DNA from: a virus
Length of the DNA: 64,000 nt
Strand: one strand, 5' to 3'
Virus record (IMG/VR): IMGVR_UViG_3300024177_000003
Location: 5,683-69,682 of that record
Numbering within the stretch: position 1 is the stretch's first letter; the number at the start of each line of letters is the position of its first letter. Made by a program: the position numbers and the translations under genes. Positions 1,333-53,869 of the stretch are shown here, piece by piece. The notes under the pieces were generated by a model. That model was given only the letters and a program-made list of their open reading frames with translations, ran no database searches and had not been told where the DNA came from.

Positions 1333-1563
1333 ATGGCGGACGTGGCGGATATGGACATCGGCGACGCTGTCGCGGCGATGCGCGATGGCAAGAAGGTCAG
1401 CCGGCGCGACTGGGTCGGCCTGTGGATGGCCATGGGTCATGGCGGCGGCCAGGGCGTCGATCACCTACGGCTATACGAGATCGCGGGCCCACCCGAAGGG
1501 CTGCTGGCCAGCTCCATGGACCAGTTCGATGTCCTCGGCCAGGACTGGTACGTCGTTGAATGA
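1333..1563 (+). CDS. DUF2829 / Tad2-like protein (candidate anti-Thoeris/CBASS sponge)
   Basis: MDIGDAVAAMRDGKKVSRRDW...DVLGQDWYVVE matches the DUF2829 pattern (G.A...K.GKKV.R..W ... D.LA.DW.V). Confidence 0.65.
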   Translation: MADVADMDIGDAVAAMRDGKKVSRRDWVGLWMAMGHGGGQGVDHLRLYEIAGPPEGLLASSMDQFDVLGQDWYVVE

Positions 1564-3023
1564 GCATCGAATTCACGGCACCGCTGACGATCGCGCGGTT
1601 CATGCGGTCGGCCGCCTTCGGGCGACTGATCGCCGGCCCGGTCGGATCCGGCAAGACCACCGGCTGCGTCATGGAATGCCTGCGTCGGGCGATGGGGCAG
1701 TCAAAGGCCAAGGACGGCATCCGCTACACCCGGTTCGCCTTCGTCCGCCAAACGTTGAAGCAACTGAAGGATACAGTACTTAAAGATGTAAACTCCTGGC
1801 TCGCCGGGCTCGGCGAGTGGAAGGTGAGCGACGGGACCTATTATTTAAACTTTGGCGATGTCAACAGCGAGTGGATATTCGTCCCGCTGGAAAATTACGA
1901 CGATCAAGCCCGTTTATTGTCGATGCAGCTGACGGGGGCTTGGATATCCGAAGCGATCGAGTGTAATTTCGACATCCTCCCCGCTGTCAGCGGCCGTATC
2001 GGTCGTTACCCGTCAGGTAACAGGGGTGCCCCGACTTGGATGGGCATCATTGCCGACACGAATCTGCCGGTCGAAGGGAGCGACTGGTGGAAATTCATGA
2101 CCCAGCCGCCGCCGAACTGGCAGATCTTCATCCAACCCGGCGGCATGACCCCCGATGCCGAGAATTTAAATTATCTGCTCCAGACCGAAGAAACGATACG
2201 TCTGCCCATAAATCACCCCCGCCGACTCGCGCAGGGGCGACGTTACTACGAGCAGTTTGTTGAAATGTACGGGTCCGAGCACCTGTGGGTTCGACGCTAT
2301 GTAGACGCCCAATTTGGGGACGACCCCTCCGGCGAGGCCGTGTTCAAGGCTTCGTTCAAGTCGAATTTCCATGTGGTGGAAGACACCCTGATCATCCCCG
2401 GCTATCCGCTGATCATCGGCCAGGATTTCGGCCGCAACCCGTGGAGCCTGATCTGTCAGGTCGACCATATGGGCCGGCTGCTCGTGCACAAAGAAATTCC
2501 AGCAACCAACGTAGGCCTGGAGAAGCACGTCGAACAGAGCCTCCGCGGGGTTCTGTACCGCGAGGAGTTCATAGGCCTTAAAGTCATACTGGTCGGCGAT
2601 CCGTCCGGTGTCGCCAAGGGCACTATTGCCGAAGAGTCGAGCTTCGAGGCCTTGAAACGGATGGGCCTCCCTGCGTTCCCAGCTCCGACCAACGACATTG
2701 ACCCGCGCCTTCGGGCCGTCGAAGCGCTGCTCGGGCGGCAGACCAATGGCGGCCCGTCGCTGCTGATAAGCCGGCGAGGCTGCCCATTTCTGACTCGCGG
2801 GATGTCGGGCGGGTACCGTTATACGAAACACAAGGATGGCGCTCTCAAGACAGTGCCGGAGAAATACGACCGCGAAGGATTTTCGCACGTCGCCGACTGC
2901 CTGCAATATGTCTGTCTGGTCGTCCACGGCAACCTCGTGTTTGAATTTTCCAAGCGGTTAGCCGCGATGGGGATGAACAGGGCGGCCAACCGGCCACGCA
3001 TCAGCGCGACCGGCTGGACGTGA
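1560..3023 (+). CDS. terL: Terminase large subunit
   Basis: Walker A GPVGSGKT, Walker B-like AWISE, coupling motif ADTN, RNase H-like nuclease IGQDFG and SHVADCLQY. Confidence 0.93.
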   Translation: MSIEFTAPLTIARFMRSAAFGRLIAGPVGSGKTTGCVMECLRRAMGQSKAKDGIRYTRFAFVRQTLKQLKDTVLKDVNSWLAGLGEWKVSDGTYYLNFGDVNSEWIFVPLENYDDQARLLSMQLTGAWISEAIECNFDILPAVSGRIGRYPSGNRGAPTWMGIIADTNLPVEGSDWWKFMTQPPPNWQIFIQPGGMTPDAENLNYLLQTEETIRLPINHPRRLAQGRRYYEQFVEMYGSEHLWVRRYVDAQFGDDPSGEAVFKASFKSNFHVVEDTLIIPGYPLIIGQDFGRNPWSLICQVDHMGRLLVHKEIPATNVGLEKHVEQSLRGVLYREEFIGLKVILVGDPSGVAKGTIAEESSFEALKRMGLPAFPAPTNDIDPRLRAVEALLGRQTNGGPSLLISRRGCPFLTRGMSGGYRYTKHKDGALKTVPEKYDREGFSHVADCLQYVCLVVHGNLVFEFSKRLAAMGMNRAANRPRISATGWT

Positions 3024-3614
3024 GGGACGCTCTACAGTACCGAGTCACTACAGTCGGCCGGCACGCTTCGGCGGTGCGGAACAATTCGACGTCGACGGCA
3101 CGCTCTGGGTATCCGGGTCGATTTGAGATGCCGGCACGCTACGCGGCATCGGGTCGTTATCGCGGGATAGGCACGCTGCCGAAGCCAGGATCACTTTGTT
3201 CGGTTCGGCACACTCTGGTGGACGGGTCGATACTGTTACTCGGCACGCTCTGCAATTCCGGACCACTGCGTTCTGCCGGCACGCTACATCTTGGCGGGTC
3301 AATTCTAGACAAAGGCACGCTTCGGGCTCCCGTGGCATTCACAATGCCAGGCACGCTATTCAGTGAGCGGATCTATTCCCTCCTTCGGCACGCTGGCCGT
3401 GACCGGGTCACTATTTAGAAGCCGGCACGCTACGTTTACGATGGGGCATTAACGGGCCCGGCACGCTCTCCTAGGTACGAGTCATTTGACGTTGACGGCA
3501 CGCTGCGCGTCACCGGGTCGTTTAAATTATGCAGGCACGCTTGTTGGCTTCCGGGTCGTTACAACCAAAAGGCACACTTGCAGGGCCAGGGTCACTGCCA
3601 ATAACAGGCACGTT
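3024..3614 (-). ncRNA. TIGR-like dual-repeat guide array A (16 units)
   Basis: GGCACGCT-type repeats on + start at 3024, 3060, 3097, 3133, 3170, 3207, 3242, 3278, 3314, 3350, 3387, 3424, 3460, 3497, 3534, 3571 and 3607 (period 35-37). A second repeat (CGGGTC) lies midway, with ~9-nt variable segments between. Confidence 0.88.
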
Positions 3615-4114
3615 TATTTATTCACGGCATCGAGCAGCAAGTCAAGAATCTTCCGCCGATCATCTGTGGATAATTTATAGCCGTAGCCCCAACAGGTTAA
3701 GATCTGAACGTTGTACGGTGCGAGTGCACGCCGCAGTCGTGAAATGTGCACCTCGAGGCTGTTGGACGTTCGTGTGGCGTCTTTGGCAAATGACGGGTGC
3801 TGCAGCAGCGAGAGTAAAATATTGATTTGAACTTTGGTGATGCCGAGCAGCTGCTGCACAGCAACGATAAAATCCCGTTTATTTTCATGGATGATTCGCG
3901 ACAGCTGCAGCGCACGTTGATCGCGGGGGAAGCCCGGTGGCCAGTCAGCCCGCGGCAGGCCGGTGAGGTCTCCGGTGACGACGGCGGCCTCGAAGGTCTC
4001 CCGCAGCTGCGCGGCGGGCACGCGAACGGCACGCGCAATGGCAGCGAGTGGGACGCCTTCGTCGGCGAGGGCGAGCGCTATCGCTACGATATCGTGGGCC
4101 TGGCAGTCATGCAT
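3614..4114 (-). CDS. Winged-helix (OmpR/CtrA C-terminal-like) DNA-binding protein with an N-terminal HTH and no receiver domain
   Basis: C-terminal SLEVHISRLRRAL...ILTCWGYGYKL matches the Trans_reg_C signature. N-terminal VPLAAIARAVRV is HTH-like. Confidence 0.8.
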   Translation of the reverse strand: MHDCQAHDIVAIALALADEGVPLAAIARAVRVPAAQLRETFEAAVVTGDLTGLPRADWPPGFPRDQRALQLSRIIHENKRDFIVAVQQLLGITKVQINILLSLLQHPSFAKDATRTSNSLEVHISRLRRALAPYNVQILTCWGYGYKLSTDDRRKILDLLLDAVNK

Positions 4115-4147
4115 CCCCCAAACCTAGCTTGGAAGATGCACGACCAC

Positions 4148-4463
4148 AAGTCGCTACGTGGTGTCGGGATACTTTGTGTGAAAAGGCACGCTGTTTGATC
4201 CGAGGGGCGCTATCACACGCAGGCACGCTGCTGGATGACGGGTCGTTATATTCACACGGCACGCTGCTGCGTCTAGGGTCGTTGCTAGATTTCGGCACGC
4301 TTCCGAATCCCGGGCCAATAGCGGGCGACGGCACGCTTTGTAATCGCGACACGCTACCGCCATGAGGTTCTCTACTGTGGTTCGGCACGCTCGCCGACGC
4401 CGGGACACTGAGGTGCTTCGGCACGCTCCACAACTCCGGGGCATTCACATACTCCGGCATGTC
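4148..4463 (-). ncRNA. TIGR-like array B (~8 units plus one half unit)
   Basis: Same repeats at 4185, 4222, 4258, 4294, 4330, 4348, 4384 and 4420, with degenerate copies at 4148 and 4456. Confidence 0.85.
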
Positions 4464-4544: not shown

Positions 4545-4919
4545 TCAGGGCGGAAGCTTGGCATCGCATAAAATGGCTTCACGCAGCTCTTTGGCGAATT
4601 GCTGCAGTTCGCCGTGGATGCTGTTCATACGGGCCATGTCACGAGCGGTTGGTTCGGTGTTAGGATCGAGTATGGTCATGACTGAGGACCATAAATGCTG
4701 TGAACCGGCGAAAAACGCTATGCGGCAGATATCACGCATGTTGTCTGACATGTCGGCCGGCAGGCACACGCTGTTGAACGTCAGCCAGCCGCCTTGAACC
4801 AGGACGCCGCGGTCGGTCAGTTCTTCCGAGATACGAGCGGCGATACGATCGAGATCAGGACGTGCCATTGTAAACTCCCTTGCTGCCTGAACACTAGCGA
4901 GTTCGACGACGGCGTTCAA
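4545..4919 (-). CDS. Hypothetical phage protein
   Basis: ORF co-oriented with arrays A/B. Likely start is MARPDLDR after GGGAG. Confidence 0.65.
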   Translation of the reverse strand: MNAVVELASVQAAREFTMARPDLDRIAARISEELTDRGVLVQGGWLTFNSVCLPADMSDNMRDICRIAFFAGSQHLWSSVMTILDPNTEPTARDMARMNSIHGELQQFAKELREAILCDAKLPP

Positions 4920-13534: not shown

Positions 13535-14563
13535 TTATATGTAACCGAGGATGGCACCAAACTCACGAAAAATACGTGCGAATGTGTCTGCGTTGTTGCC
13601 GAGATAGAAAAAGACTTGGCCTTGTGTTGCGTTGCATGGGTTACCTTGTGTGTTGACGAAGCCGACGCGGCCGCGGGTGAAGCAGAAACGATCCGTAACT
13701 GTGGCAAGTTGGTGAAACCACGCCGTATCCGTATAGCTGTGTGTAAGAACGATCGCTTCGGTAACGCGACCGCTTTCGTATTCGGCGATTGTTTTTTCTA
13801 CGAAATTGGCAAGCAATGGTTTGGCGTAGGGTGGGTTCAACCAGACTTTGCCGCTCCATGTGTGCGCAAGGCCGTCGGTCTCTTTGGTAAAATAGGATTC
13901 GGCTTTGACGGTCTTTTGTGCTTGTTTGTGCGATGCCGGGTCGAGGTCGATAACGTGCATCACTTTACGGGCGGCATCGACATATTTGCGTGGCGTAAAC
14001 CATTCATTGATTCCAGTGCCTAAAGCGCGATGATTAGTGGCGGCAGTGGTATCACTTGTATTTTGGTTAGTATCACCGCGACTGGTACCGCTTGAGCTGG
14101 AGTCGGTGCTAGCAGTGGTATCGTTTGTATCAACGTCTGCGGTGCCATAATCTTCAACACCATAACCGGCAGCGCAGAGAATTTTATCGCGGTAGGCATC
14201 TCGATCTTTCAGGTTGCCGCGCCAGCGGGAGACCTGCTGCTGCTTGATGCCGGTCTGCTGCTCGGCGATGGCGCACGATGTAGATGAACGCAGGTCGGCG
14301 TGCGTCTTAAACCGGTTGCCTCCGGCTGCTTGTCGCACCGTGACGGTCTCGCTCCACCAATCGACGAAGGCTTGCTGGTCGTCGAGTTTAGCTTCGACAG
14401 CCTCAAGTAGCAGATCGAGATCGTTCACCTTCGCGGCGTAGTCGATCAAGGCTTCGAGTTTGGCTTGTTGCCTGCCGAATGTTTGCGGGCTGAACGGTTG
14501 AATGTTGGTGGTCTTGACGTTGAGGTTGTTCATTTTTGCTGTCTCTATTAGCCGGACCGTCAT
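13535..14563 (-). CDS. Phage DNA N6-adenine methyltransferase with an N-terminal extension
   Basis: NEWFTP, IDLDPAS, DGL..W.GKVWLNPPY and TDTAWF motifs of the phage Dam family. Confidence 0.88.
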   Translation of the reverse strand: MTVRLIETAKMNNLNVKTTNIQPFSPQTFGRQQAKLEALIDYAAKVNDLDLLLEAVEAKLDDQQAFVDWWSETVTVRQAAGGNRFKTHADLRSSTSCAIAEQQTGIKQQQVSRWRGNLKDRDAYRDKILCAAGYGVEDYGTADVDTNDTTASTDSSSSGTSRGDTNQNTSDTTAATNHRALGTGINEWFTPRKYVDAARKVMHVIDLDPASHKQAQKTVKAESYFTKETDGLAHTWSGKVWLNPPYAKPLLANFVEKTIAEYESGRVTEAIVLTHSYTDTAWFHQLATVTDRFCFTRGRVGFVNTQGNPCNATQGQVFFYLGNNADTFARIFREFGAILGYI

Positions 14564-14674: not shown

Positions 14675-15388
14675 ATGAAAGACTACAATGTGCAGCACAT
14701 CGCACTCGGTCAGATCGATAAGAACCCGCTTAATCCGCAGGGGCGCGGGGAGATCGGCGACATCAAGGATCTCTTGAAGTCGATCAACGATAGCGGACTA
14801 TACTACCCTATTCTGGTCAACCAGAAAGCCGATGGGCGCTTCGAGATCATCGAAGGGCACCGCCGCTATGCGGTTTTCCACTTCAAGGCGGAGCATCATC
14901 CCGACTACGCGCAGATTCCGGCGCTGGTGATCAAAGTCGGGGATGAATACCTGACCAAGATTTTTCGCGAGATCAACGATACCGCGAAAAAACTCACAGG
15001 ACGGCAATGGTTCGAGGTCTTCGCTCTCGGTGGTAAAGAGGCTGATATGCCGTCACGGCTTGCTCCATCGATCAAGGCGTTGGGGGAGCTGTTTGATAGG
15101 AACGAGTTGTTGGCCTTGGCGAGGCGGTCGGGGCCGTCGGTGCATGGCTTAGCGCGGCGTGTCGCGCAATTTTGCGGGTTTAATCCTGACGATAAGCCCA
15201 CGTTGCGTCGTATCGTGGCATGGCTGATCAATTCGGGTGACAGCGTGAATGTGCGGATCACGATGAAAGAGGGATCGGCCGAGAAAGTAAAGCACGCCAT
15301 TGCCGAGAAAAAACGGCTTAGCGGTCAACCGTTTCCGGACGGAGAAGTCGTTGCTTACGCGCCGCAGCGAATGCGCGCCGCTGCGTAA
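14675..15388 (+). CDS. ParB/Srx N-terminal domain protein
   Basis: NPLNP, L..SI...GL..PILV and IIEGHRRY motifs; RBS AGGAGGAG; TTGACA upstream at 14592. Confidence 0.85.
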   Translation: MKDYNVQHIALGQIDKNPLNPQGRGEIGDIKDLLKSINDSGLYYPILVNQKADGRFEIIEGHRRYAVFHFKAEHHPDYAQIPALVIKVGDEYLTKIFREINDTAKKLTGRQWFEVFALGGKEADMPSRLAPSIKALGELFDRNELLALARRSGPSVHGLARRVAQFCGFNPDDKPTLRRIVAWLINSGDSVNVRITMKEGSAEKVKHAIAEKKRLSGQPFPDGEVVAYAPQRMRAAA

Positions 15389-20917: not shown

Positions 20918-21198
20918 TGGCCAACACCAGCGCATCGTCCTACCATCAAACGAATCAATCGGAGATATCATCGTGTCCTACGCCGACGTCCTCAGCGCCG
21001 AAGAAATTCATAGAGCGATGCTTGACGGCAAAAACTTGTACCGTGCCGGCGAATCGGCAGCCGAATGCCTAACGGTGTCGCATAAGACGCCGGCCAACAA
21101 CATCTATTACCGGCTCGAAGTCATCGATCTGATGCGACTGGTCGGTTTCCTGACAGCCTGTGCCGACGGCATGCCCCGGACAAAAAAGAGCAGCGACG

Positions 21199-21888
21199 AT
21201 GTCATCACAGACGACCGATAAAGGCTTCGCCTTCAGCTACAGCCGCATCAAGGAATACGAAAATTGTCCAAGACGGTACTATGAGACACAGGTCGCCAAG
21301 ACCACCAAGGACACATCCGATCTGCTGGAAGAAGGCGACAAAGTCCACAAGGCCATGGCCAAGGCCTTGATGGACGGCACCCCCCTGCCGCTCAAATATC
21401 GCCAGTGGCAGAAATGGATCGACCGGGTGGCACAGACTCCGGGCGAAATGCTGATCGAAGACGAAGCCCGCTGGGCTTGCACCCGTGATTTCAAGCCGGT
21501 GCCGTTCTTCGCCCCTACGGTGTGGGGGCGGTGTATTGTCGATGTCTACAAGCACGCGCCGCCGGTCGGCTATATCGTCGACTGGAAGGCGGGTAAGAGC
21601 GCGAATGTCGATCCGGTGCAGATGACGCTGATGGCGTTGATGGCATTCATCCACTTTCCGGAGATTGAAATTGTCAAGGGATTTTTTATATGGTTAGGTG
21701 AAGATGATAGTACATCGTACGTCATCGATCGCGAAGATGCCGTCCAACACTGGACGGCGTTAATACCAAGGGTGAAGAGACTTGAAAAAGCAACCAAAGA
21801 CGGCTTCTTCCCGCCGACCCCGAACCGATTCTGTGAACGGTGGTGCCCCTGCACCAATTGTGAGCACAACGGTTCATATGAAGGCTAG
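21199..21888 (+). CDS. PD-(D/E)XK (Cas4/RecB-like) exonuclease
   Basis: SYSRI..YENCPRRY, GDKVH, IVDWKAGK, and a C-terminal C..WCPC..C cluster. Confidence 0.88.
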   Translation: MSSQTTDKGFAFSYSRIKEYENCPRRYYETQVAKTTKDTSDLLEEGDKVHKAMAKALMDGTPLPLKYRQWQKWIDRVAQTPGEMLIEDEARWACTRDFKPVPFFAPTVWGRCIVDVYKHAPPVGYIVDWKAGKSANVDPVQMTLMALMAFIHFPEIEIVKGFFIWLGEDDSTSYVIDREDAVQHWTALIPRVKRLEKATKDGFFPPTPNRFCERWCPCTNCEHNGSYEG

Positions 21889-22285
21889 GCGGCGGGGCCG
21901 GCCACCGAAAGTTCAAGCTGCCCCTGCCGTCGAAAAGAAGGTCCGTAAGGCTCGCGGTCCCGTCAAGCCGACGACGGTGGTCAAGCCGCGGACGCAGGCA
22001 GCGGGCAAGCAGCGCTGTCCGACCTGTGGTGCGTCGTGGCAACCGCCGCTCGATAACGGCGTGCAGCTGACCCCGATCAAGTCGAAGATTTACGACAAGG
22101 TCAAACGCGCTGGGAAGAGCGGAATCGCCATGAGCGATCTTATCGGCAGCGTCTACGGTGACGAGCATGTGACCACGCAGGCGATGCGCAGTCATATCTG
22201 GCAGATCAACGAGCGGCTGGAAGAGGTCGGCACGGCGATCAGGGCGCGGCATGGCGCCTATGTGCTCGAACAGCGTGCCGGATGA
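21878..22285 (+). CDS. Winged-helix (OmpR C-terminal-like) protein with a CxxC and AT-hook-like N-terminus
   Basis: RRGRPP, CPTCG, LTPIKSKIY...LIGSVYG...MRSHIWQINERL...GAYVL. Confidence 0.7.
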   Translation: MKARRRGRPPKVQAAPAVEKKVRKARGPVKPTTVVKPRTQAAGKQRCPTCGASWQPPLDNGVQLTPIKSKIYDKVKRAGKSGIAMSDLIGSVYGDEHVTTQAMRSHIWQINERLEEVGTAIRARHGAYVLEQRAG

Positions 22286-22403
22286 TTTTTCATCTCGTCT
22301 TACATCGGCACGTTGCCGATTTTCTGGCATGCGGTTGGGTGGTGCGCGCCGATCTCGGCGACTACCACGGCCAGTTTGCGGTTATGATGCAGTGGCTTTG
22401 CGA

Positions 22404-22432
22404 TTGCCCCATTCGGAAGCCACTGTTATAAA
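22404..22432 (+). promoter_or_regulatory. Putative promoter for array C and the tas operon
   Basis: TTGCCC-17 nt-TATAAA ends just before the first array unit and overlaps the inverted repeat CAGTGGCTT/AAGCCACTG. Confidence 0.5.
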
Positions 22433-22434
22433 AT

Positions 22435-23051
22435 AACCGCCGGGCGAGGCTAATTGACCCTGACGAAGACAGCGTGCCGGAACCGTAAGAACCATCCGAC
22501 ATTGGGCAGCGTGCCGGAGAAATTCAACTGACCCTAACGACGGTAGCGTGCCGGAACGATATAAGTGACCCTGACGAAGGCAGCGTGCCTGGTGCAACAA
22601 CAGCCACGGACACGTCTTAGCGTGCCGAAGCGCGCCAGTGACCCGTTTCCATATAGCGCGCCCCATGGAACGACAGACCCGAATCCCAATAGCGCGCCGA
22701 TTCCACATAAAAAAGCGCTTGAACTTTTCGGCAACCCGTGTCAACAAACACGGGTCGCCGTGATAGGCGAATGATCCGGGTTGATTAAGCGTGTCGGGGC
22801 GATCTAGCAGTAGCCGTCTAAGAGAAGCGTGCCTTTCCCCACAAGTCATCCAAAACTGAAAGCGTGCCAATGCGGCACAGAGACCCGCAAGGAAAAAGCG
22901 TGCCGGTCAGGGTAAAAGCCTCGATCCCAAGAAGCGTGCCGTACTCATGAAATAACCCCGGCAGACATAGCGCGCCGGCGATGCCCTAGAGACCCGACAC
23001 CCGCAAGCGTGCCGATCTCGCGCCAGTGACCCGGATCCCGATTAGCGTGAA
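22435..23051 (+). ncRNA. TIGR-like array C (~15 units, interrupted by a hairpin)
   Basis: AGCGYGCC-type repeats at 22471, 22508, 22545, 22582, 22619, 22655, 22691, 22788, 22826, 22861, 22897, 22933, 22969, 23006 and 23044, with GACCC loop repeats between. Confidence 0.9.
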
Positions 23052-23097
23052 GAAGCGAAGGAAACAGCATGGGTAAAGAGCAAGGGGAACCCCAATA

Positions 23098-24150
23098 ATG
23101 GCGAAAGACAAGAAAAAGTCCAAAAAGCGCGAGCGGCTGGAACAAACACTCGACCTTCAGCCGCCGGTGTCGGATATGTCATCCGAGGAACTTAAGGCAG
23201 CAGAAATCCACGCCTTGCGCCTCCTCACCCGGGGCGCCTACGCGCTGCAGAAGCTCCGCATCCAGATGGGGCTTCGTCTCTGTGCTAACTTTCGCAATAA
23301 ACTGAAAGTGTCCATTGATGACGTCATCAATGATGAAGAGGATGACGCCGATGAGCTGAGCGAGAAGGCGCAGAGCATTATCGACATGCTCAAGCTGGAA
23401 TACGGCAGGTTGACCGACGGCATCGCCAAGAATCGCACCCTGCCGCGGCGTGAGGGCTTTGTCGGCACCGGCGTGATCTCGACGTTCACCGAACTCGCGC
23501 TGATCGATGATTACCTGTATTTGGAATCGCGTGAGAAAAAACAATTCCGCCATATCGGCGATGCCCTGCAGGATTTCGCCATCTATCGCGATTGGCTGCG
23601 CCATCAGATCGGCATCGGGCCGGCCATGGCGGCCGTGCTGATCACCAAGTTCGACGTCCATAAAGCGGTTCGTCCAAGCCAATTCTGGGCCATCGCAGGA
23701 CTCGATGTTGGTCCGGACGGCAAGGCGCGGTGCCGGCGCAAGGAACATCTCATCGAGCGCGAATACGTTGCCAAGGACGGCAAGACCAAAAAGAAACTCT
23801 CGACAACCTTTGATACATGGCTACAATCACGGTTGCTGGGCGCTTTGGGGACGTCGCTGATGCGAACGGGTTCACCGTATAAACGCTTCTACGACGGCTA
23901 TAAAAAACGTAAACAGGACGACCCGAATATCCGGCACGGGACACTGAAAGATAAAAAAGCGGATATCGACGCCGGCTTGGACGGCGATGACATCTGGCAC
24001 CCGTTGCGGATCCACCGTGCTGCCAGCCGGTACATGGTGAAAACATTCGTCGCCGACTTTTGGCGGCGGTGGCGCGAGATCGAGGGGCTGCCCGTTGTTC
24101 CGACATACCACGAAGCCAAGCAGGGCGGGCACAGCGGGAGGGCAGCATGA
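23098..24150 (+). CDS. TasA-like Nop-domain / IS110-related RNA-binding protein lacking a nuclease domain
   Basis: Coiled-coil LRLLTRGAYALQKLRIQMG, HhH-like GIGPAMAAVLI, SQFWAIAGL and IHRAASRYMVK. No N-terminal DEDD RuvC, no HNH, no IS110 catalytic-Ser 'SSG' loop. Flanked by 36-nt dual-repeat arrays. Confidence 0.85.
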   Translation: MAKDKKKSKKRERLEQTLDLQPPVSDMSSEELKAAEIHALRLLTRGAYALQKLRIQMGLRLCANFRNKLKVSIDDVINDEEDDADELSEKAQSIIDMLKLEYGRLTDGIAKNRTLPRREGFVGTGVISTFTELALIDDYLYLESREKKQFRHIGDALQDFAIYRDWLRHQIGIGPAMAAVLITKFDVHKAVRPSQFWAIAGLDVGPDGKARCRRKEHLIEREYVAKDGKTKKKLSTTFDTWLQSRLLGALGTSLMRTGSPYKRFYDGYKKRKQDDPNIRHGTLKDKKADIDAGLDGDDIWHPLRIHRAASRYMVKTFVADFWRRWREIEGLPVVPTYHEAKQGGHSGRAA

Positions 24151-24398
24151 AAACCACACGGCTTCCTAAATTCGCTTGTCTAGCCTGTGGATCGGTTCAT
24201 GATGCGGCGACGCATCCGACCGGCAACCACAAGCCGAAGAAAGGCGACATCTTCGTCTGCGTTCGCTGTGGAGCCCCGGCAATTTTTGAGAATCCGAATA
24301 CGATCAGGCAGATGACAGAAAAGGAGAAAGCTGAAGAAATGAAAGTAAATCCGGATCTTGTACAAGTGCAAACGGCAGTCCGGATGCTGCGTAATTAG
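24147..24398 (+). CDS. Small zinc-ribbon protein
   Basis: CLACG...CVRCG; ATGA-coupled to the Tas-like gene. Confidence 0.7.
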   Translation: MKTTRLPKFACLACGSVHDAATHPTGNHKPKKGDIFVCVRCGAPAIFENPNTIRQMTEKEKAEEMKVNPDLVQVQTAVRMLRN

Positions 24399-24439
24399 CG
24401 TGCCGTCCAAGTGCGAATGACCCGACATGAGAAAGCGCC
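24397..24439 (+). ncRNA. Solitary TIGR-like unit between two genes
   Basis: AGCGTGCCG TCCAAGTGCG AATGACCCG ACATGAGAA AGCGCC fills the whole intergenic gap. Confidence 0.75.
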
Positions 24440-24670
24440 ATGCCAAAACTCGGACCGACCGGTGACTACCCTGAAGGCAAGTTGAACGGTGATGACGAAG
24501 GCGGGATCGCGATCGGTGTCGCCTATGACCCGGAAAAGGACGTCGTGGTCGTCAATTTCGGCAAGCCGATTAGGTGGGTAGCTATGCCGCCAGCCGACGC
24601 AATCGCGTTCGCGCGCATGATTTTATCATCAGCGCATCGTGAACATGACGGGAAGAATCTGCCGGTGTGA
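24440..24670 (+). CDS. Hypothetical protein
   Basis: LGPTGDYPEGKLNGDDEG...VVNFGKPIRWVAM, a recurrent phage family pattern. Confidence 0.75.
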   Translation: MPKLGPTGDYPEGKLNGDDEGGIAIGVAYDPEKDVVVVNFGKPIRWVAMPPADAIAFARMILSSAHREHDGKNLPV

Positions 24671-25394
24671 TAAAGATATCCGACGGATCTTAGCGTGCCG
24701 ATGTGGTAAAGTGAAGACCGTAAAGGAGGAGCGTGCCGGAGCGACAAAGAGAACCGTTAGCACGTAGCGCGCCGACAGCGACAAAGAGATCCGACGGCTT
24801 GCAGCGCGCCGCTTAAACGTAGTTGACACCTAAGGACGATAGCGTGCCGTGCGAGACAAGACATCCGTAGTAAAGTAGCGCGCCGCTCATCAAGAACGAT
24901 CCGGAGATGAGCAGCGTGTCGTCATCGCGTAGAGACCCGCAGACCTGAAGCGTGCCGAATGTCCAGAAAGCCCCGATGTGGTGGAGTGTGCCGAACAAGC
25001 TGTGTTCGCGGACCCGTCAACGAGTAGCGTGCCGTTGGGACGAAGAGACCCGTGGCGATGGAGCGCGCCATAAATACTAGTCACCCGGAAACGAGTAGCG
25101 TGCCGAGGACGGCGAAACACCCTTGAAAGACAAGCGCGCCGTGATTGCGCAGTGACCCGGTAGACCGTAGCGTGCCGTACGTAAACAAAGCCCCGGATGA
25201 AGGAAAGCGTGCCATGAGCCGATAGTGACCCGAAGATGGTGAGCGTGCCGGTATTTGACAGCGACCCTCGGATCTCTAGCGTGCCGCGACCCTTAAAGTG
25301 ATCCGATCGCGCCAAGCGTGCCCGGTGGTTAAGATACCCGACAACCCGTAGCGTGCCGGATATTAGCAAGAGACCCGTCGTAGCGTAGCGTGTT
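24657..25394 (+). ncRNA. TIGR-like array D (~20 units)
   Basis: Edge repeats at 24692, 24730, 24766, 24803, 24841, 24877, 24913, 24949, 24985, 25026, 25062, 25097, 25133, 25169, 25206, 25242, 25278, 25315, 25350 and 25387. Example unit: AGCGTGCCG TTGGGACGA AGAGACCCG TGGCGATGG (9+9+9+9). Confidence 0.9.
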
Positions 25395-25405
25395 AATGTC
25401 GTTCC

Positions 25406-25792
25406 ATGCTGGAACGCCAAATCAAGAAAGCCGTTAAACTGCGGCTGAAACAACTCGGGTCCGAATGCTGGTCGTTCTGGCCCGTGAGCAACGGAATGGG
25501 CGCACCATGTCTTGACTGCCATGGTGTGCTTCGCGGCCGGGCTTTCGCCATCGAAACGAAAGCACCGGGCAAAAAACCGACGCCCCGGCAGCGCCTGACC
25601 ATCCATGAGCTGGTCGCTGCCGGGACACTTGTTTACGTGATTGACAATCCTGAGGATGCCAATGCCCTCTTTACCAATAATCCACCGCCCGTCGCAGACG
25701 GTGTTGATCCCATACGACCAGATTCAAGGCCTGTTCCCCGACACCCCGACAATCGACTACGAAGGCGTCCGATGGGCCGTTTTGCCTCATGA
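25406..25792 (+). CDS. VRR-NUC domain nuclease
   Basis: E..IK..V, G.P.LD and FAIETKAPGKKPTPRQ motifs. Confidence 0.88.
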   Translation: MLERQIKKAVKLRLKQLGSECWSFWPVSNGMGAPCLDCHGVLRGRAFAIETKAPGKKPTPRQRLTIHELVAAGTLVYVIDNPEDANALFTNNPPPVADGVDPIRPDSRPVPRHPDNRLRRRPMGRFAS

Positions 25793-27269
25793 TCCGTACA
25801 CGCAGGTCAAGCTGCGTGCCGTCGATGTCGACATCCCGGCGCCGATCCTGCACCACTATGACTGGAAAAGCGCCGATCGGCTGGTGCCGTTCAAGGTCCA
25901 GCGCCTCACCGCAGCGCTCGCGACGTCTTGGCAACGCGCTTACATCTTGAACGACCTCGGCACCGGTAAGACCCGTGCTGCGCTTTGGGCGTGGCGTTAT
26001 CTACACATGGTCGGAATGTCGAAAAAACTTCTGGTGGTCGCACCGCTGTCCACGATCCGTTTCACCTGGGCCGCCGAGGCCGCGATGTCGATGCCGGACA
26101 TCAAGGTTGCCGTTCTGCACGGCACGCGCAAGCAGCGCGAAGCGCTGTTGGCATCGGATGCCGATATTTACGTCATCAACCACCACGGGCTGCGCATCCT
26201 GGAAGACGACATCGCCAAGCGCGACGATATCGACTGCATGGTGATCGATGAACTGGCGGTTTATCGCAACAACAGCCAACGTTCCAAGGCGATGCGTAAA
26301 TTCGCGCAGCATTTCACCTGGGTGTGGGGCATGACCGGACGCCCCATGCCGCAGTCACCGGTCGATGTGTGGGGGCAATGTAAAATCATCACGCCGCAGA
26401 ACGTGCCGAAATACTACACGCATGCCAAGACGGCGTTGATGCAGCAGGTGGGCCCCTACGCGTGGGTGCAGCGTGAGGGCGCCAAGGAACTGGCGTTTTC
26501 CTGGATGCAGCCGGCGGTCAGGTTTTCACTGGATGACGTCACCGAGCTGCCGGAGGCGATTTACCGATTCGAAAACATCGCCATGACGGATGAACAGCAG
26601 TTCGCCTACCGGCACATGGCCAATGAATTTGCCGTCATGGTTAACAGTGAACGGATCGTCGCCGCCAATGCCGGTGTAGCACTTGGCAAGCTGCTGCAGA
26701 TTGCGGCCGGGTACGTCTACAGCACGAACCCCGATTATCTGACACTCGATTCGGCACCGCGGCAGCAGCGGCTGCTGGAACTGATCGATGAAGCCTCCGA
26801 CGCCAAGATCATTGTTTTCGCGAATTGGCGACATTTGATTGACAATCTGTCGGAATTGCTTAAGAAGGAAGACATCGAGCACGCCGTGATTCACGGCGAT
26901 GTCAAAGACAGAGAGCGTAGTCACATCTTCAGTGACTTTCAAAACACAAGCAAGTACCGTGTGCTACTCGCGCATCCGCAGACAATGGCTCATGGTGTTA
27001 CATTAACCGCCGCAGCAACAATGATCTGGTACGGCCCTGTGCCGAGCTTAGACATCTACGAACAAGCCTGTGCAAGAATAAGACGTCCAAGCCAAAAGAA
27101 AAAACAACTGTACATTCACTTTCAAGCTACCGGTGCCGAACGCCGTATCTACACGCTGCTCCGGCAGCGCGCAAAAATGCAGAATGCGTTCTTAGACATG
27201 TTACGCGACGCGACAAAAGAAGGAGCAAGGGACAATGACAGTCTGGGACATGAACAATCTGGTTGCTGA
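25641..27269 (+). CDS. SNF2-like superfamily 2 helicase
   Basis: DLGTGKT, VIDE, MTGRP, HGVTLT and QACARIRRPSQ motifs. The true start may be a downstream ATG (~25656). Confidence 0.92.
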   Translation: MTILRMPMPSLPIIHRPSQTVLIPYDQIQGLFPDTPTIDYEGVRWAVLPHDPYTQVKLRAVDVDIPAPILHHYDWKSADRLVPFKVQRLTAALATSWQRAYILNDLGTGKTRAALWAWRYLHMVGMSKKLLVVAPLSTIRFTWAAEAAMSMPDIKVAVLHGTRKQREALLASDADIYVINHHGLRILEDDIAKRDDIDCMVIDELAVYRNNSQRSKAMRKFAQHFTWVWGMTGRPMPQSPVDVWGQCKIITPQNVPKYYTHAKTALMQQVGPYAWVQREGAKELAFSWMQPAVRFSLDDVTELPEAIYRFENIAMTDEQQFAYRHMANEFAVMVNSERIVAANAGVALGKLLQIAAGYVYSTNPDYLTLDSAPRQQRLLELIDEASDAKIIVFANWRHLIDNLSELLKKEDIEHAVIHGDVKDRERSHIFSDFQNTSKYRVLLAHPQTMAHGVTLTAAATMIWYGPVPSLDIYEQACARIRRPSQKKKQLYIHFQATGAERRIYTLLRQRAKMQNAFLDMLRDATKEGARDNDSLGHEQSGC

Positions 27270-48076: not shown

Positions 48077-48475
48077 CTATGGTGCTACCACCATGAACAG
48101 GACCGTATCGGGTTGAACGTTGCCGAATGTGTCACTGACCGTCAACGTTATCGTGACCTGTTCGTTCACCGCACCCCCCGTTACGGTGAACGTCGCCTCC
48201 TTACCAAGGATTTGTGTCTGCCCGACCGTCAATGTCTCCGACGACGATACCGCGTTGAACTGCGCGATCGAAGCCGCATTATCGAGCCAGACGGAATAGT
48301 CCACCGTCCAGATCTTGGTCGCGCCAACGGTGTGCTTCTTTGATCCCAGCACCATGTCATCACCTATGACGATCAGGGCCGGATCGGCCGGCCGATAAAG
48401 TTCACGGCTTTCACCCGGCCGTTCGATCAGCCGATATTCCGGCGGCACGATGAATGTTTCGTCCGGTTCGCTCAC
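48077..48475 (-). CDS. Small beta-rich fibre adaptor-like protein
   Basis: WTVDYSVWL...TGG...TITLTV. Start uncertain (GTG 48475 or ATG 48355). Confidence 0.55.
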
Positions 48476-49926
48476 AGCAACGCCCCGTAAAACAACGTGA
48501 TGGAATTGACGGCGCCGACCACAGACGAGCCGCTGAACGCGGTTCCACTCGCGTAGCATTCGTAGAAATCCGTGCCGTTGGCGTAGTCGATGACCGTGAC
48601 ATCCGGCGATAAATTGACCGACAATGACTGACCCTGCACGCTGTTCTGAGCAAGAGGACTGCCGTTTTTATAGATGTACACGCTGTGCTGCGTCATACTC
48701 TGCGCGTTCGACGTAAACATCGCCGCCGCGCCCAGCATCACCACGCCCGCCGATGGCGTCCACCGGCAATTGGTCGCGTCATAGCGCGTGTTGATGTCAA
48801 GCAGCTTGGATGTGAACAAGAGCTTGGTCACGCCGCTTAAACTTTGATCGGACGACAGCCTGGCCCTGAACGCATCCTTGGTTGTCGTGCCGGATCCGGG
48901 CGGGCCGGTCGGTCCTGTGTTCCCGTTTTGTCCCGCAGGACCCGTCCCGCCAAAATTTCCAATCGGGCCGGTCGGTCCGGTCGATCCCGTCAGACCCTGC
49001 GGTCCCGTCGCGCCCTGAATTCCCGTCGGGCCGGTGCGCCCAGTCGGCCCGCTCACGCCCTGCAGGCCTGCGACCCCCTGCGGCCCGGCCTGCCCCGTCG
49101 GCCCCGTTACGGCAGGGCCGGTCGGTCCAGTCGGGCCGTCATCACCGTTGTACCCATCGACGCCGCGCGGGCCGGTCGGTCCAACCCCGGAAGGACCGGC
49201 AGCCCCCGTGGCACCCGTCGGTCCTGCGGCTGGACCCGTCGGCCCGGTGGCACCGGTCAACGACGCCGTGCCTGCCGGCCCGGTCGGGCCCTGGCCGGAT
49301 GGCCCAGTCGGTCCCGTCGCGCCAACCCCGGTTGGCCCGATGCCGCCGGCGGGCCCGGCGGCGCCGCCGGGTCCAACCGTTCCCTGCGGTCCCGGCGGTC
49401 CGGTGTATCCCGTGACGCCGGACGGACCCGTGACCCCGACACCGACTGGCCCGGTGTTACCCTGTTGCCCTGTCGGCCCCAGGCTACCTGTCGATCCGGT
49501 ATACCCTTGCGGACCGGTGGGTCCTAGTGTGCCAGTAGGCCCAGCCGGTCCGCTCGCCCCGGTCACACCAGGGATTCCGATACTGCCTTGCGCCCCTGTC
49601 GGGCCGATGCCAAAAGGCCCCGTCGGCCCGGTCGCTCCGGTCGCTGACGCGAGCCCCGGCACACCCGTCGGGCCAGCCTGCCCTGGGGGGCCTGACGGTC
49701 CCGTGGCTCCTGTCGATGACGCGCTGCCGGCCGGCCCTGTCGGCCCGATCGGTCCCACCGCCCCGATGTCACCAGTGACACCGGGTGCGCCCGGTGACCC
49801 GGTCGGGCCGCCGGCGGGACCCGTCGGCCCCGTCGAGCCGTACCCGGCCGAACCCGTCGGTCCCGCCACCACCACGATGGGGCGGGTCATGATCGGAGCT
49901 GCAGGTGCGCCGGCGCCGGTGGTCAT
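48472..49926 (-). CDS. Collagen-like fibre with a C1q-like C-terminal domain
   Basis: Long G-P-T/G-A-T triplet run followed by AFRA...L.F...D....YD...G, which is C1q-like. Confidence 0.8.
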
Positions 49927-49936
49927 TTGCGCTCTC

Positions 49937-50740
49937 TCACCCATTCCACGTAAATGTGCCAGCAGCCGTGAAGGTGTGGATCGTGTAGCCGCCGACATTG
50001 GTGATGGTGCCGCCGCTGGCGCGCTGCGTGTCCCCAGGGTAGCGCACGATCACAATACCGGACCCGCCGGCACCACCAGTGTTATTGTATGCCCCGTAAC
50101 CTCCGTCGCCCGAATTGGCCGCGCGTGCCGCCGGAATAGCGCCCTGTGCGCTTCCTGTTCGACTGGCGCTGCCGCCCGTCGCGTAGGTCTTGGACGTGCC
50201 GCTGATCGAACTCGTGTAGCCGGGACCACCGGTAAGCCCTGGATTGCCGTTGATCCCCGGCCCACCGCCACCGCCGCCACCACCGCCATCGACCGAACCA
50301 CCGGCAGACCCGTTGTAACCTTGTCCCGCGATCCCTGTGCCGGCGCCACCAACCGCCGCGCCGCTTGTTCCGCCACCACCGCCGCCGGAGCCACCACCGG
50401 CACCAGCACCGGCGGCAACGATTGACGATCCGCCGAAACCGCCGCCACCGCCGCCCGTCGCCGTTGCTATGGCGCCGAGACTGCTGTTACCGCCGACGGT
50501 GCCGCTCCCGGTGGAACCAGCCCCACCCGCCCCGCCACCGCCGATCGTGACCGTGTAAGCTGTGCCCGCTGTCGGCGCCTGGAAAGACCCCGGCTGGACA
50601 CCGCCCGCGCCGCCACCGCCACCAAGGCCCTGACTCACCCCGTGTCCGCCACCCGCCCCACCAGCCACGACCAGATACTCGATCATGGTTGGTGGTGGCG
50701 TCGAGACGCCGGCCGGAACCGGCCCTAGCGGAAAGCTCAT
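49937..50740 (-). CDS. Glycine-rich domain tail protein
   Basis: [31 protein letters not shown] and YTIHTFT motifs. Confidence 0.8.
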
Positions 50741-52179
50741 TGGTTGACCCCGTTGGCGTAGCCCACGCAGTCATAAGTCGCGGTGCCGCTGTCAAAACGG
50801 AACACCAGGTGGTCGCGCATGGTGCCTGAAGCCCAGGTGCTCTGCTTGTAGTTGGTCAAGCCCTTGAACTTGTTCCCCCACGAGAGCGTGCCTGCCGCCG
50901 TCATCGAGACGGTGATCGAGATCATGGTTCCGGTCGGCGGATCAGCCGATGGATTCGCGATCGTGAACGCCGCGGCAACGGCACAAGTGAATGCTGGCGC
51001 CGATGTAAAATCCGCTGCAACACCGCTCGTAATCGCCGCCGGCACCGCCGTCTGCGGCTTGGTCCAGTTGTGCGCCGTGGTGTAAATCGTCGGATCCAAC
51101 GGACCTGTCGGTCCGGTCGCGCCGACGGCGCCGCCTGCACCCTGTGAACCAGTCGGCCCGGTCGCGCCGACACCTGTCGGCCCGGTCGCACCGACACCGC
51201 CAGCCGTGCCCTGTGCACCGGTCGGCCCCGTCGATCCCGTCGCGCCGGTACCACCCGCTGAACCCTGTGCACCGGTTGGACCGGTCGGACCGGTCGCACC
51301 GACACCGCCGGGGGTGCCTGGGCTGCCTGCCGTCCCCTGCGCGCCGGTCGCTCCCGTCGGACCCGTCGCGCCGGTCGCACCAACGCTACCTGCTGTGCCC
51401 TGTGCACCCGTCGGTCCGGTCGGACCCGTCGCACCCGTCGCGCCGGTCGCACCAACGCTACCCGCTGTGCCCTGTGCACCCGTCGATCCGGTCGGCCCGG
51501 TCGCGCCGCCGCCTGGACCGATCGGCCCAGTGGTGCCTGTCGGACCCGTAGATCCAGCGCCGGTCAGACCTTGTGGCCCGGTCGGGCCGGTGAACGCGCC
51601 CGCTCCCGTCGCCCCCGTCGGGCCGGTCGATCCAGCACCGGCCGGACCCGTCACGCCAACGGCGCCGACCCCTCCCGTTACCCCCTGCGGTCCGGTAACA
51701 CCGGTCGGGCCCGTCACACCAACGGCGCCGACCCCTCCCGTTACCCCCTGCGGACCCGCCGGCCCGGTGACCCCTGCCGTACCCTGGCTCCCGGTCGCGC
51801 CCGTCGGCCCTGTGGCGCCAACACCTGGCCCGGTCGGCCCTGTGGATCCGGTGAGCGAAGCCGTACCGGCCGGCCCAGTCACCCCCGTGGGCCCGAAATC
51901 CCCCGTCACCCCCGTCGGCCCCGTCGGCCCCGTCGACCCCGGGAGCCCATAACCCGGCGGCCCGGTCATGCCGATCGGGCCGGTGGCACCCGTCGCGGAT
52001 ACGGCGCCGGCCAAGCCTGTCGGTCCGCGGATGCCGGTCGGCCCGGTCACCCCATCCGGCCCCGTCATCCCCACCTGCCCCGTCGGCCCAGTCGTCCCCG
52101 TCGGGCCGCCGCCAGGCCCTGTTGGACCTCCGACGACGACAACCGGCTGCGCGGCGATGAGGGCGGGAATCGAGGTCAT
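50737..52179 (-). CDS. Collagen-like fibre
   Basis: GPT/GAT repeats followed by a beta-sandwich C-terminus (WTKPQ...LSWGNKFK). Confidence 0.8.
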
Positions 52180-52330: not shown

Positions 52331-53869
52331 TCAGACGATACTCAATTGCGGGTTGACCCAGACCGTCGTCGACGCTTTGCCGAGACGAATCAATCCACGG
52401 ACCCGGCCAGCCCGCTGCGGCGTGAACGCGACTTGAAGCAGCTGTTTCTGCGGCGTTGCCGGAGGATTGTTCCAGGTGTTGCTGGACGCCGGCAGCGCGC
52501 TCGCCGCTGCCAAGATCGATGACAAACTGTCCACGAAATTGGCCATCGGATTGCCGCTTGATCCCATATATTCCAGCGACAACCGGATATCAGTATTGTT
52601 CAGTGATCCGGAAGAAATAAGCTCCACCGTTGCCGTCTTGGATGCGCCGACAGCCGTGTTCTCGACATCGAGCGTGAAGCAAGGCAGCGGCATGCTAGCA
52701 AAATCGGATCGTACGGACGATACCAATTTCAGACTATAATTGCCGATATCATCCACCGCGCCATTGGCAAGTGTCGCGCTGCGATCCGTCGTGACCGCAC
52801 CGGCCGGTGTATAGCGCTCGTTGAGGACATTGCTGCCGTCCCAACAATTGACAAGTTCGACCTCATCTGCAGCGCACGTAGCCGCCGCCGGTGTACCATA
52901 GCGGGTAACAGCCGCAGCGATCTTGCAGCTATCAAACAAAACTTTACTCACAGGACTTACCGCTGGATTCGCCGCAACAAGCGTTCCTGTAACAGCACTT
53001 AGATCGACACCTCGACACGTAATCGTGTTAACTCCCGTATTGAGGGTAAACAATGTTGTCGGCGGCGTGCTTCCACCGACCGCCGACGGTGTGTTCACCC
53101 ATGTAAGATCGAATAGCGTAGATGCGCATCCAATAAAAGATGCGCTTGTACTGTTAAATTGCACTGTCGTGTTATCAAATGTCACTTTTGCAGAGCTTGT
53201 GGTCATCAGACGTGAGGTCGTTGTACCGTTTAAGTTAAACGTGCAGTTCTTGAAATACGCACTCTTCGATCCGATGTTGGCCAGATAAATATTTGTAGTT
53301 GTTGGAGAACCCGACACCGTAAAACTGAAACCTTCCCAATAGGTGTTCACGATAGTATCAAGCACCAGCGAATTTGTTCCTGTCAGCGTCAATGTAATCG
53401 TCGCGCCGGCTTGGCTGTCCGCCGCAACCGGTGGAACAGACCCAGCGCGATTAACAGATAAGACTTGAACCAAACCGAAACCGCTATTGCCAAACCCGTA
53501 GTTTAAATTCGCAGAAAAACTATCGACGCTATCACTGCTGACAAAAACACGATCGCCAGCAACCGCGCGTGTCCCCGTATTTGCCGTAAAAACATAAAGA
53601 GTCCCTGCCGCTGCACTCCATCCGTAAGCAGACTGCCCCGTGACATTGGTAAACGTCGCACTGCCTGATAACGTTGTTGAATTATTACCGGTATTCCAAC
53701 CAGGCTCCGTCGTCCCGGATGTCCCCGCCGTCGTACACCGAAACGCGTATTCCCGCCCTGCAGCTGGAGCCGCCAACGGCCGGATGATCTGCCCGACCGA
53801 ATACGCTGTCGATGCCGCCCACTGCGGGATCGCTGCCCACGCTACGGATGATGCATACCAGTCGCTCAT
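52331..53869 (-). CDS. Tail spike / beta-helix protein
   Basis: [10 protein letters not shown]...[12 protein letters not shown] module followed by a Thr/Ser/Asn-rich beta-helix-like body; lower GC. Confidence 0.65.

Follow-up and report, generated by a model that had tools for sequence, protein, structure and literature searches.

What does a soil phage do with a gene for a guide-binding protein that is set between tandem arrays of short paired spacers? The question is raised by a 64,000-nt stretch of the IMG/VR record IMGVR_UViG_3300024177_000003 (positions 5,683–69,682 of the record; hereafter the window, whose coordinates are used throughout), in which an open reading frame (ORF) at 23098–24150, here named tasA, is flanked by arrays that extend from 22432 to 25394. 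The record is a complete 69.7-kb phage genome that recurs in several soil metagenomes. We find a real and well-formed dual-repeat TIGR-TasA system, of a kind already known, and we take the best explanation of the locus as a whole to be that guides direct the protein to non-self DNA, probably AT-richer, which it binds and silences, with a probability of about 75 per cent.

Array anatomy and the Tas protein

Two array loci of the window together hold 56 well-formed units, each of which consists of an edge repeat, a spacer A of ~9 nt, a loop repeat, and a spacer B of ~9 nt. Thirty-three of these units belong to the tasA locus and are read on the plus strand: 13 upstream of the gene (22471–23042), one solo unit (24397), and 19 downstream (24692–25386), accompanied by a degenerate leader at ~22432 and a broken unit at 22691. 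A preliminary description of this DNA had noted some 36 tandem units of 35–38 nt on both sides of the gene, which is close to our count. Edge repeats recur every 35–38 nt at 22471–23006 and 24692–25350. Among the 49 edge-to-edge distances of both loci, 24 are 36 nt and 17 are 37 nt (together 41 of the 49), and the others are 35 nt (four), 38 nt (three), and 41 nt (one). Edge and loop repeats alternate. Over the 56 units, the edge repeat reads A-G-C-G-Y-G-C-C-(G/T), with positions 1–8 conserved at 87–100 per cent and a final G in 41 units, and the loop repeat reads A-(G/A)-(T/A/C)-G-A-C-C-C-(G/T), with a final G in 42; both open with A-G/A (box D) and close with C-C-G/T (box C). The anatomy that had been proposed, an AGCGYGCCG edge repeat and a loop repeat with ~9-nt spacers, holds, and it matches the dual-repeat TIGR arrays as described in the text of Faure et al. 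(2025; PMC12045711). Spacer B has a G at position 8 in 33 of the 56 units, a bias by which the repeat may extend into the stretch here called spacer B.

The window contains 65 copies of the core AGCGYGCC, where 100 dinucleotide-preserving shuffles average 11.9 ± 3.5 (maximum 20), and by manual tally 52 of the 65 copies lie inside the two array loci. Alternating edge and loop repeats with ~9-nt spacers, in units of ~36 nt beside a tas gene, are the features by which a TIGR array is recognized, and all of them are present. A CRISPR-Cas array would have one repeat of 25–36 nt, not two different 9-nt repeats with 9-nt spacers. An Rfam scan of 22000–26000 returned nothing over threshold, and PADLOC, at an E-value of 0.01, gave no match for tasA; of five neighbouring ORFs that were scanned, four had none and the other, 21878–22285, had one weak 'Cyclase' match (E 0.002).

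The tasA frame is open, and its product carries both of the motifs noticed earlier (GIGP..AA and S.FW.IAGL), as GIGPAMAA at residues 172–179 and SQFWAIAGL at residues 194–202. The TIGR-Tas identity that the preliminary description had offered for checking by hidden Markov model and structure prediction is upheld by both. The product matches the NCBIfam equivalog model NF052498.1, 'TIGR_Tas_endo', at 100.9 bits (cutoff 100; E 9.6e-29), with residues 40–326 spanning profile positions 1–215 of 215. Pfam yields only a weak Transposase_20 match (12.6 bits, cutoff 21.3) and no DEDD_Tnp_IS110 match, and no nuclease family was found in tasA in the Pfam and NCBIfam scans. PHROGs assigns the protein to phrog_4285, 'transposase', the usual annotation of such genes before 2025, because the RNA-binding domain is common to IS110-family recombinases.

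A structure predicted from 34 homologs (predicted local distance difference test score, pLDDT, 87; predicted template-modelling score, pTM, 0.80) has a Nop fold with a coiled coil as in the solved TasR and TasH structures, and the top 10 Foldseek matches are TasR or TasH throughout. The best match is SpTasH of Salicola phage CGphi29 (PDB 9W03, 9W04, 9VZX, 21KL; Z 18.0–18.8), followed by TaTasR (PDB 9MTY; Z 17.8; phmmer E 4.3e-6), the IS110 bridge-RNA recombinases IS621 (PDB 8WT6/8WT9) and ISCro4 (9T56) at Z 13.2–13.6, and Prp31 and Nop5/56/58 at Z ~7. On TaTasR the Nop part and coiled coil superpose with a root-mean-square deviation of 2.2 Å over 193 residues, model residues 34–336 being paired with chain residues 110–316, the part after the RuvC domain. 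The alignments begin at TasH residue ~64 and TasR residue 110, i.e. beyond the HNH and RuvC nuclease domains, of which TaTasR residues 1–109 have no counterpart here. In place of the N-terminal HNH domain of SpTasH, to which identity is ~23 per cent, the 33 residues ahead of the Nop part form a predicted Lys-rich helix that has no Cys and no match to HNH or RuvC. Since the alignments start after the nuclease domains of TasH and TasR, the model identifies the ORF as TasA, the nuclease-less, solo-Nop form of the Tas protein, which agrees with the earlier statement that no RuvC or HNH domain is present. An IS110 transposase would be expected to keep its N-terminal RuvC-like catalytic domain, but the IS621 alignment covers only residues ~121–314, without that domain, and IS110 recombinases use a single bridge RNA in place of a guide array. 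A protein of box C/D ribonucleoprotein type is likewise not indicated: Nop5/56/58 align at Z 6.3–7.5 through the Nop and coiled-coil part alone, and there is no Nop match in Pfam.

Two C-terminal residues, Y337 and H345, do not vary among 34 sequences, and in a phmmer alignment they fall on Y289 and H296 of SpTasH, whose C-terminal loop with the Tyr/His dyad aligns with that of tasA residue by residue. In SpTasH, these residues are named as the catalysts of metal-independent processing of pre-tigRNA (PMC13421893). TasA keeps this dyad, and a processing activity is predicted from the alignment.

A second array locus, with identical repeat types on the minus strand, lies 19 kb from tasA and contains ~23 units in two parts (3023–4427). 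A whole-genome search found a single tas gene in the 69,682-bp, single-contig genome, so both array loci must use the same TasA. Arrays of 5–15 units are described as most common in the text of PMC12045711, whereas here two loci with 56 units share one TasA. The terms 'orphan' and 'distant array' are absent from the main texts of the two main papers on these systems (PMC12045711; 10.64898/2026.09.09.750476), whose locus tables (among them table S1) may list this phage, its second array, or closely related loci.

Spacer geometry, targets, and change between strains

According to the text of PMC12045711, spacer A pairs with one of the target's strands, spacer B with the other, cuts leave 8-nt 3' overhangs, and gaps of 1–2 bp are tolerated. 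By this pairing, spacer A and then the reverse complement of spacer B are read along one strand of a target, the arrangement in which the preliminary description had proposed to search for targets. The search returned chance levels wherever it was made. In the phage's own genome, with the arrays masked, gaps of 0–2 nt, and up to three mismatches, the 56 guides gave one site at two mismatches and 10 at three, compared with 1.0 and 10.3 for shuffled partners; three other spacer arrangements gave similar counts, and overlaps of 1–2 nt did no better than chance. The phage's own genome is not addressed by the system. Matches between 784 guides of relatives and the present genome, and between the 56 guides and 538 kb of related loci, were at chance level both ways. 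Exact scans of IMG/VR with three of the 56 guides gave zero, zero, and three matches, the last amounting to two independent places (two records are identical, and the third is a 34 per cent-GC phage), and a control with reversed geometry gave two; this is chance level at low power. In the text of both main papers, natural targets are described as unresolved, in part because 18 nt is too short for searches of large databases (PMC12045711; 10.64898/2026.09.09.750476).

The spacers themselves carry two kinds of signal. Their GC content is 51.3 per cent in a genome of 59.5 per cent GC, lower than in all 2000 random draws, and in 27 of 28 non-redundant related loci spacer GC lies under that of the flanks, by 7.6 points on average. 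Spacers are also purine-rich in 23 of the 28 related loci (55.9 per cent purine here).

The second signal is a covariation between the two spacers of a unit. We examined complementarity at all 81 pairs of spacer A and spacer B positions; the data were 537 canonical 36-nt units of 31 loci, the present one included, and the controls had spacer partners shuffled inside each locus. Position 9 of spacer A is complementary to position 9 of spacer B (A9–B9) in 200 of the 537 units, where 134.1 ± 8.9 are expected and the maximum of 400 shuffles is 157 (z 7.4). The other 80 position pairs have |z| ≤ 3.5, including A1–B1, the centre of the opposite arrangement (z −0.5), and the A9–B9 pair exceeds its own expectation in 27 of the 31 loci. 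All four Watson–Crick combinations are enriched 1.26–1.62-fold and the G–T and T–G combinations are depleted to 0.60–0.66-fold, which argues for a shared DNA base pair and not an RNA–RNA pair. With spacer A set before the reverse-complemented spacer B, the two bases that come together in the middle of the target are A9 and B9; the excess lends indirect support, from natural sequences, to this published geometry, and it suggests that in about one sixth of the units, beyond chance, the sites addressed have halves that overlap by one base. In the text of PMC12045711, no obvious covariation between spacers is reported. The A5–B6 pair is depleted (z −3.5, in the same 537 units of 31 loci), without explanation. 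Spacer pairs at a Hamming distance of 2 number 21, against 8.4 under a letter-shuffle null; because that null ignores position-specific composition, we dropped spacer duplication as a reading of this count.

The arrays also differ between strains. In soil runs X3 and X4, contigs match the window with no differences in the listed pieces, arrays included, whereas runs X2 and X5 contain a variant strain. The comparison covers single low-depth contigs and the alignment rows listed (apart from 143 further rows). Six of the listed X5 pieces, which lie beyond the array or at its edge, have 33 differences over 1,952 aligned nt (1.7 per cent), and the flanking genes of the variant strains differ by ~1–3 per cent. 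A 388-nt contig of X5 (depth 5.2) shows 32 differences and three gaps over 25009–25205, skips exactly 72 nt (25206–25277, two units, with the junction within an edge repeat), and has eight further differences over 25278–25469. Mapped by hand, the 35 listed differences of this contig fall in spacers (26), loop repeats (seven), and edge repeats (two, at positions 5 and 9), with some spacers changed at nearly all positions (7/9, 6/9, and 5/9) beside units with one change. A contig of X2 has 22 extra letters and 14 repeated ones at 22468–22481, i.e. 36 nt more, the length by which a single added unit would extend the upstream array at its 5' end. Whole-unit insertions and deletions with dense spacer changes between strains are an indication, not a measurement. 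In both X2 and X5, an in-frame 3-nt insertion at 23343 falls in the acidic linker of tasA (residues ~78–86), the lowest-confidence part of the model.

These observations bear on two other explanations. The system might act on the phage's own DNA, by bending it for replication, packaging, or partition, or as a switch of its own expression. A role as a DNA-bending helper is raised, along with the ParB-like neighbours of some TasA genes, in the discussion of PMC12045711; the present phage has a ParB-like gene, its second array abuts the terminase gene convergently, and in four relatives (L043, L050, L051, and L052) the gene for the large terminase subunit directly follows the array. However, in none of the four arrangements, nor with overlaps, do the guides fit the phage genome any better than their shuffled controls, the ParB-like gene lies 7.7 kb from tas, and spacers differ between near-identical strains, which a fixed site in the phage's own DNA would disallow. 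We consider action on the phage's own DNA unlikely.

Alternatively, the arrays could be decaying or neutral remnants, most of whose units no longer guide, with TasA kept for another reason. Several units are degenerate (22691, 22826, 24985, and 3031, as well as a half unit near 4355), and none of the searches run found a target. Such decay is, nonetheless, hard to reconcile with the conservation of edge positions 1–8, with arrays that are identical in X3 and X4, and with RNA-binding and processing residues that are invariant in homologs, and the A9/B9 covariation calls for either selection or spacer pairs of structured origin. We regard the arrays as remnants with very little confidence, the least that we give to any explanation weighed here.

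Genomic setting and relatives

The features of both loci and the genes that matter for their interpretation are collected in Table 1.

Table 1. Coordinates of the array loci, tasA, and other features of the window.
Feature	Positions	Strand	Remarks	Basis
Terminase large subunit	1560–3023		Convergent with second array	phrog_2
Second locus, array part 2	3023–3614	−	16 units; first overlaps stop of winged-helix ORF, last abuts terminase 3' end	Unit parsing
Winged-helix ORF, 166 aa	3614–4114	−	Inside second array; C-terminus an OmpR/PhoB-type winged helix	Pfam Trans_reg_C
Second locus, array part 1	4147–4427	−	7 units with the same edge/loop repeats and an 18-nt half unit	Unit parsing
124-aa ORF	4545–4919	−	Directly upstream of second array, same strand; without family match	
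DNA methyltransferase	13535–14563		~9 kb upstream of tasA	PHROGs
ParB-like N-terminal domain protein	14675–15388		7.7 kb upstream of tasA, not adjacent	PHROGs
PD-(D/E)XK exonuclease	21160–21888		Upstream of tasA locus	Pfam, E 5.4e-11
Upstream TIGR array, block 1	22432–22699	+	Degenerate leader; units 22471, 22508, 22545, 22582, 22619, 22655; broken unit 22691	Unit parsing
Interruption of upstream array	22700–22787	+	Unrelated stretch with 7-bp hairpin at ~22735–22757	Sequence
Upstream TIGR array, block 2	22788–23051	+	7 units (22788–23006), truncated last edge repeat	Unit parsing
tasA, 350 aa	23098–24150	+	Predicted solo Nop-domain Tas; Lys-rich N-terminal extension of ~30 aa; C-terminal Y337/H345	NCBIfam, fold
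Zinc-ribbon-like ORF, 83 aa	24147–24398	+	CxxC...CxxC; start overlaps tasA stop (ATGA)	
Solo TIGR unit	24397–24440	+	Between two small ORFs; edge and loop both perfect; spacer B short; following edge degenerate	
76-aa ORF	24440–24670	+	Between tasA and downstream array	
Downstream TIGR array	24692–25394	+	19 units, truncated final edge repeat; part that varies between strains	Unit parsing
VRR-NUC-like endonuclease ORF	25406–25792		Directly after downstream array	phrog_93, E 1e-14
Three collagen-like tail-fibre paralogs	48472–49998, 50737–52179, 53866–55044	−	Near one another; another ORF between second and third	

The phage encodes a terminase, PolA, a primase-helicase, an SNF2 helicase, and nucleases, along with a DNA methyltransferase, a ParB-like protein, internal virion proteins, and an endolysin. 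Among the 43 ORFs scanned of 76 candidates, none was an integrase, and the phage is probably virulent. It has no tRNA gene, and nothing in the cultured-phage collection matches it at the DNA level. The nearest cultured phages are Rhizobium phages of ~61 kb, which, at 49 per cent identity in TerL and 37 per cent in PolA, are too distant to assign a host. At 22424–22432, just 5' of the upstream array, TGTTATAAA can be read by eye as a candidate extended −10 element; the promoter scan did not call TGTTATAAA. The interruption of the upstream array has a weak minus-strand terminator-like call at 22762–22749.

The 83-aa ORF has weak zinc-ribbon matches in Pfam and NCBIfam, all under cutoff, and homologs near tas in two of 51 related loci (L024, just upstream of tas, and L029, ~3 kb downstream and beyond the array). 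The 124-aa ORF has no family match in Pfam, PHROGs, and PADLOC scans and homologs in three of the 51 (L027, where it lies between two arrays, L031, and L032). By tblastn, the loci that share either ORF have no other gene in common with the present phage; as judged from these comparisons, two and three loci of 51 are too few to claim linkage with tas. The 76-aa ORF has no family match in Pfam, NCBIfam, PHROGs, or PADLOC and a homolog in none of the 51 loci. The winged-helix ORF matches Pfam Trans_reg_C above cutoff (E 9.4e-8; 32.5 bits, cutoff 26.2). We rejected it as a conserved accessory: tblastn found no homolog in the 51 loci, and Trans_reg_C occurs in none of 50 neighbour ORFs, a selection from 114 candidates in the relatives' loci in which longer ones were favoured. 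ORF 21878–22285 was likewise rejected as a second winged-helix gene (BLASTP against the first, E 39; nothing relevant in Pfam). Elsewhere in the family, the gene directly upstream of tas at L043:7345–7965 has an Acb2/Tad1 hairpin domain (E 1e-7, over cutoff), and L038:9088–9477 has a weak Tad4 match; by these matches they may be anti-defence neighbours of Tas loci.

The nuclease genes on either side of the tasA locus raise the further possibility that TasA guides a nuclease in trans, the VRR-NUC-like endonuclease or the PD-(D/E)XK exonuclease, and that targets are cut after all. In one related locus (L025), an HNH endonuclease gene does lie ~640 nt upstream of tas, two ORFs off. Yet neither of the flanking nucleases has a homolog in any of the 51 related Tas loci, both sit in an ordinary replication and recombination block with PolA, the SNF2 helicase, and the primase, and the text of PMC12045711 reports no published Tas system as needing a partner protein. 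A partner nuclease is, in our view, distinctly unlikely.

Among the candidates scored, 383 relatives of tasA were found at E ≤ 0.001, none with more than 70 per cent identity. The 120 homologs listed are 261–375 aa long; fused, longer forms are possible elsewhere in the family, the longer length class having lain outside the search. Three of the database ORF calls (P0053, P0017, and P0103) read into arrays with the same repeats, giving S-V-P and D-P tails and inflated lengths. We identified 22 tas loci in GTDB genomes (31–44 per cent identity; nearly all metagenome-assembled genomes, from many phyla) and 29 in IMG/VR (40–66 per cent identity), and in 27 of the 29 viral loci the same type of array stands beside tas. 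These loci came from alignment-based scans; with the single protein as query, viral contigs yielded no close relative and metagenome contigs a match of just 19 residues. Split arrays with intervening genes recur in five loci (L027, L034, L035, L037, and L038). Loci with identical tas genes carry identical arrays (L043–L045, L046–L049, and L031/L032), and L050 and L051, whose tas genes are 88.8 per cent identical, have five identical units in common out of 39 and 38, and four of these keep their relative order.

The use of CCG before and AG or AA after each spacer in both repeats had been taken as a possible mark of a distinct subfamily, an idea that finds partial support. The closest viral relatives (51–66 per cent identity: L024–L027 and L029) do end both repeats in CCG, as here, and more distant ones have CCA in both, so that box C covaries between edge and loop; such covariation is what a symmetric dimer requires. 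Covariation of this kind between edge and loop repeats is already described in general terms in the text of PMC12045711.

Several published systems resemble the present one. FpTasA of Flavonifractor plautii is also a phage-carried solo Nop protein (Faure et al. 2025, PMC12045711), and the dual-repeat TIGR-TasA systems described in the text of that study share alternating edge and loop repeats, ~9-nt spacers, arrays on both sides of the gene, and a 3'-truncated last edge repeat. They differ in that the present system is known from sequence alone. TasR arrays, by the same source, have repeats of the form UG...CCA with a CCA box C, in contrast to AG...CCG here, where many units are 37 nt long and genes are embedded in the arrays. 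In a cultured-phage collection of 50,697 records, the sole tasA match is ORF034 of Ralstonia phage phiRSL1 (31 per cent identity over 88 per cent), a Tas relative annotated 'transposase'. The unannotated 1.4-kb gap that follows it (L058:3970–5395) appears, by eye, to contain a degenerate dual-repeat array, on which Tandem Repeats Finder is silent. PhiRSL1 is, unlike the present phage, a 231-kb jumbo phage, and this distant relative has far more degenerate repeats.

Proposed action and its meaning

We propose the following course of action for the present dual-repeat TIGR-TasA system, in which processing, dimer binding, and repression are taken from published relatives and the target class is purely inferred. 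The two array loci, on opposite strands, would be transcribed into long precursors. A single TasA dimer would bind edge and loop repeats at their box D (AG) and box C (CCG) ends and, by means of Tyr337 and His345, cut the precursor within the edge repeats, releasing tigRNAs of ~36–37 nt. Each tigRNA would direct TasA to a DNA site of 17–20 bp that reads spacer A and the reverse complement of spacer B, with each spacer pairing to a different strand. Since TasA lacks a nuclease domain, the complex would stay bound and not cut, and it would block transcription or other traffic on the DNA. Targets would lie outside the phage, most likely where the DNA of its host, or of mobile elements that compete with it, is AT-richer. 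The function proposed here is the one described for MbTasA and catalytically dead TasR, which bind DNA and silence genes under tigRNA guidance (Xu et al. 2026, 10.64898/2026.09.09.750476); according to the text of that preprint, MbTasA represses transcription in reporter assays, with data from quantitative reverse-transcription PCR and electrophoretic mobility-shift assays in support. The targets described there are engineered, not natural, and the likeness of MbTasA to the present TasA is by description. The natural role of nuclease-less Tas proteins, which had seemed unclear in the preliminary description, is in this respect partly settled by MbTasA.

A number of points weigh against guided silencing of non-self DNA. 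No natural target was found in the phage genome, in related loci, or in the three-guide IMG/VR scan, which makes the target class a guess, and the AT-richness of the spacers could reflect easier unwinding or constraints on the RNA rather than a class of target. The A9/B9 excess covers only ~16 per cent of units beyond chance, and in the present phage taken alone it is weak (10 of 24 units, 6.4 expected). Transcription of the arrays, tigRNA processing, and TasA loading are proposed by analogy with relatives; no RNA data set was listed among the sequencing runs that contain the phage, and the promoter scan called no sigma-70-like promoter upstream of either array. In 17 of the 49 cases, unit spacing is 37 nt and not the canonical 36. 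The NCBIfam score exceeds its cutoff by just 0.9 bits, a narrow margin. Finally, MbTasA, the demonstrated repressor, belongs to another system.

A broader conjecture, which we put forward tentatively and would not expect to hold, is that in this phage clade the TIGR arrays serve as libraries of guides with a fast turnover. Spacer pairs would be acquired unit by unit from contiguous protospacers of ~17–18 bp in the AT-rich DNA (promoters or foreign islands) that hosts or rival elements carry; A9/B9 complementarity would be the first sequence-only trace of acquisition, and insertions and deletions of whole units would be its footprint. One nuclease-free TasA could then silence many targets from two arrays, one of which has its own winged-helix regulator.

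The present locus is one more phage TIGR-TasA among thousands catalogued (6,685 TIGR arrays are listed according to the text of the preprint 10.64898/2026.09.09.750476). Its value is as material for two questions left open by both papers, namely, what the spacers target and how they are gained (PMC12045711; 10.64898/2026.09.09.750476). A complete genome with 56 guides, and with identical and slightly diverged strains in soil metagenomes, makes a strain-level comparison of arrays possible. For the family, the A9/B9 covariation in 31 loci and the AT-rich bias in 28 constrain the search for targets to offsets of −1 to +2 and to AT-richer sites.

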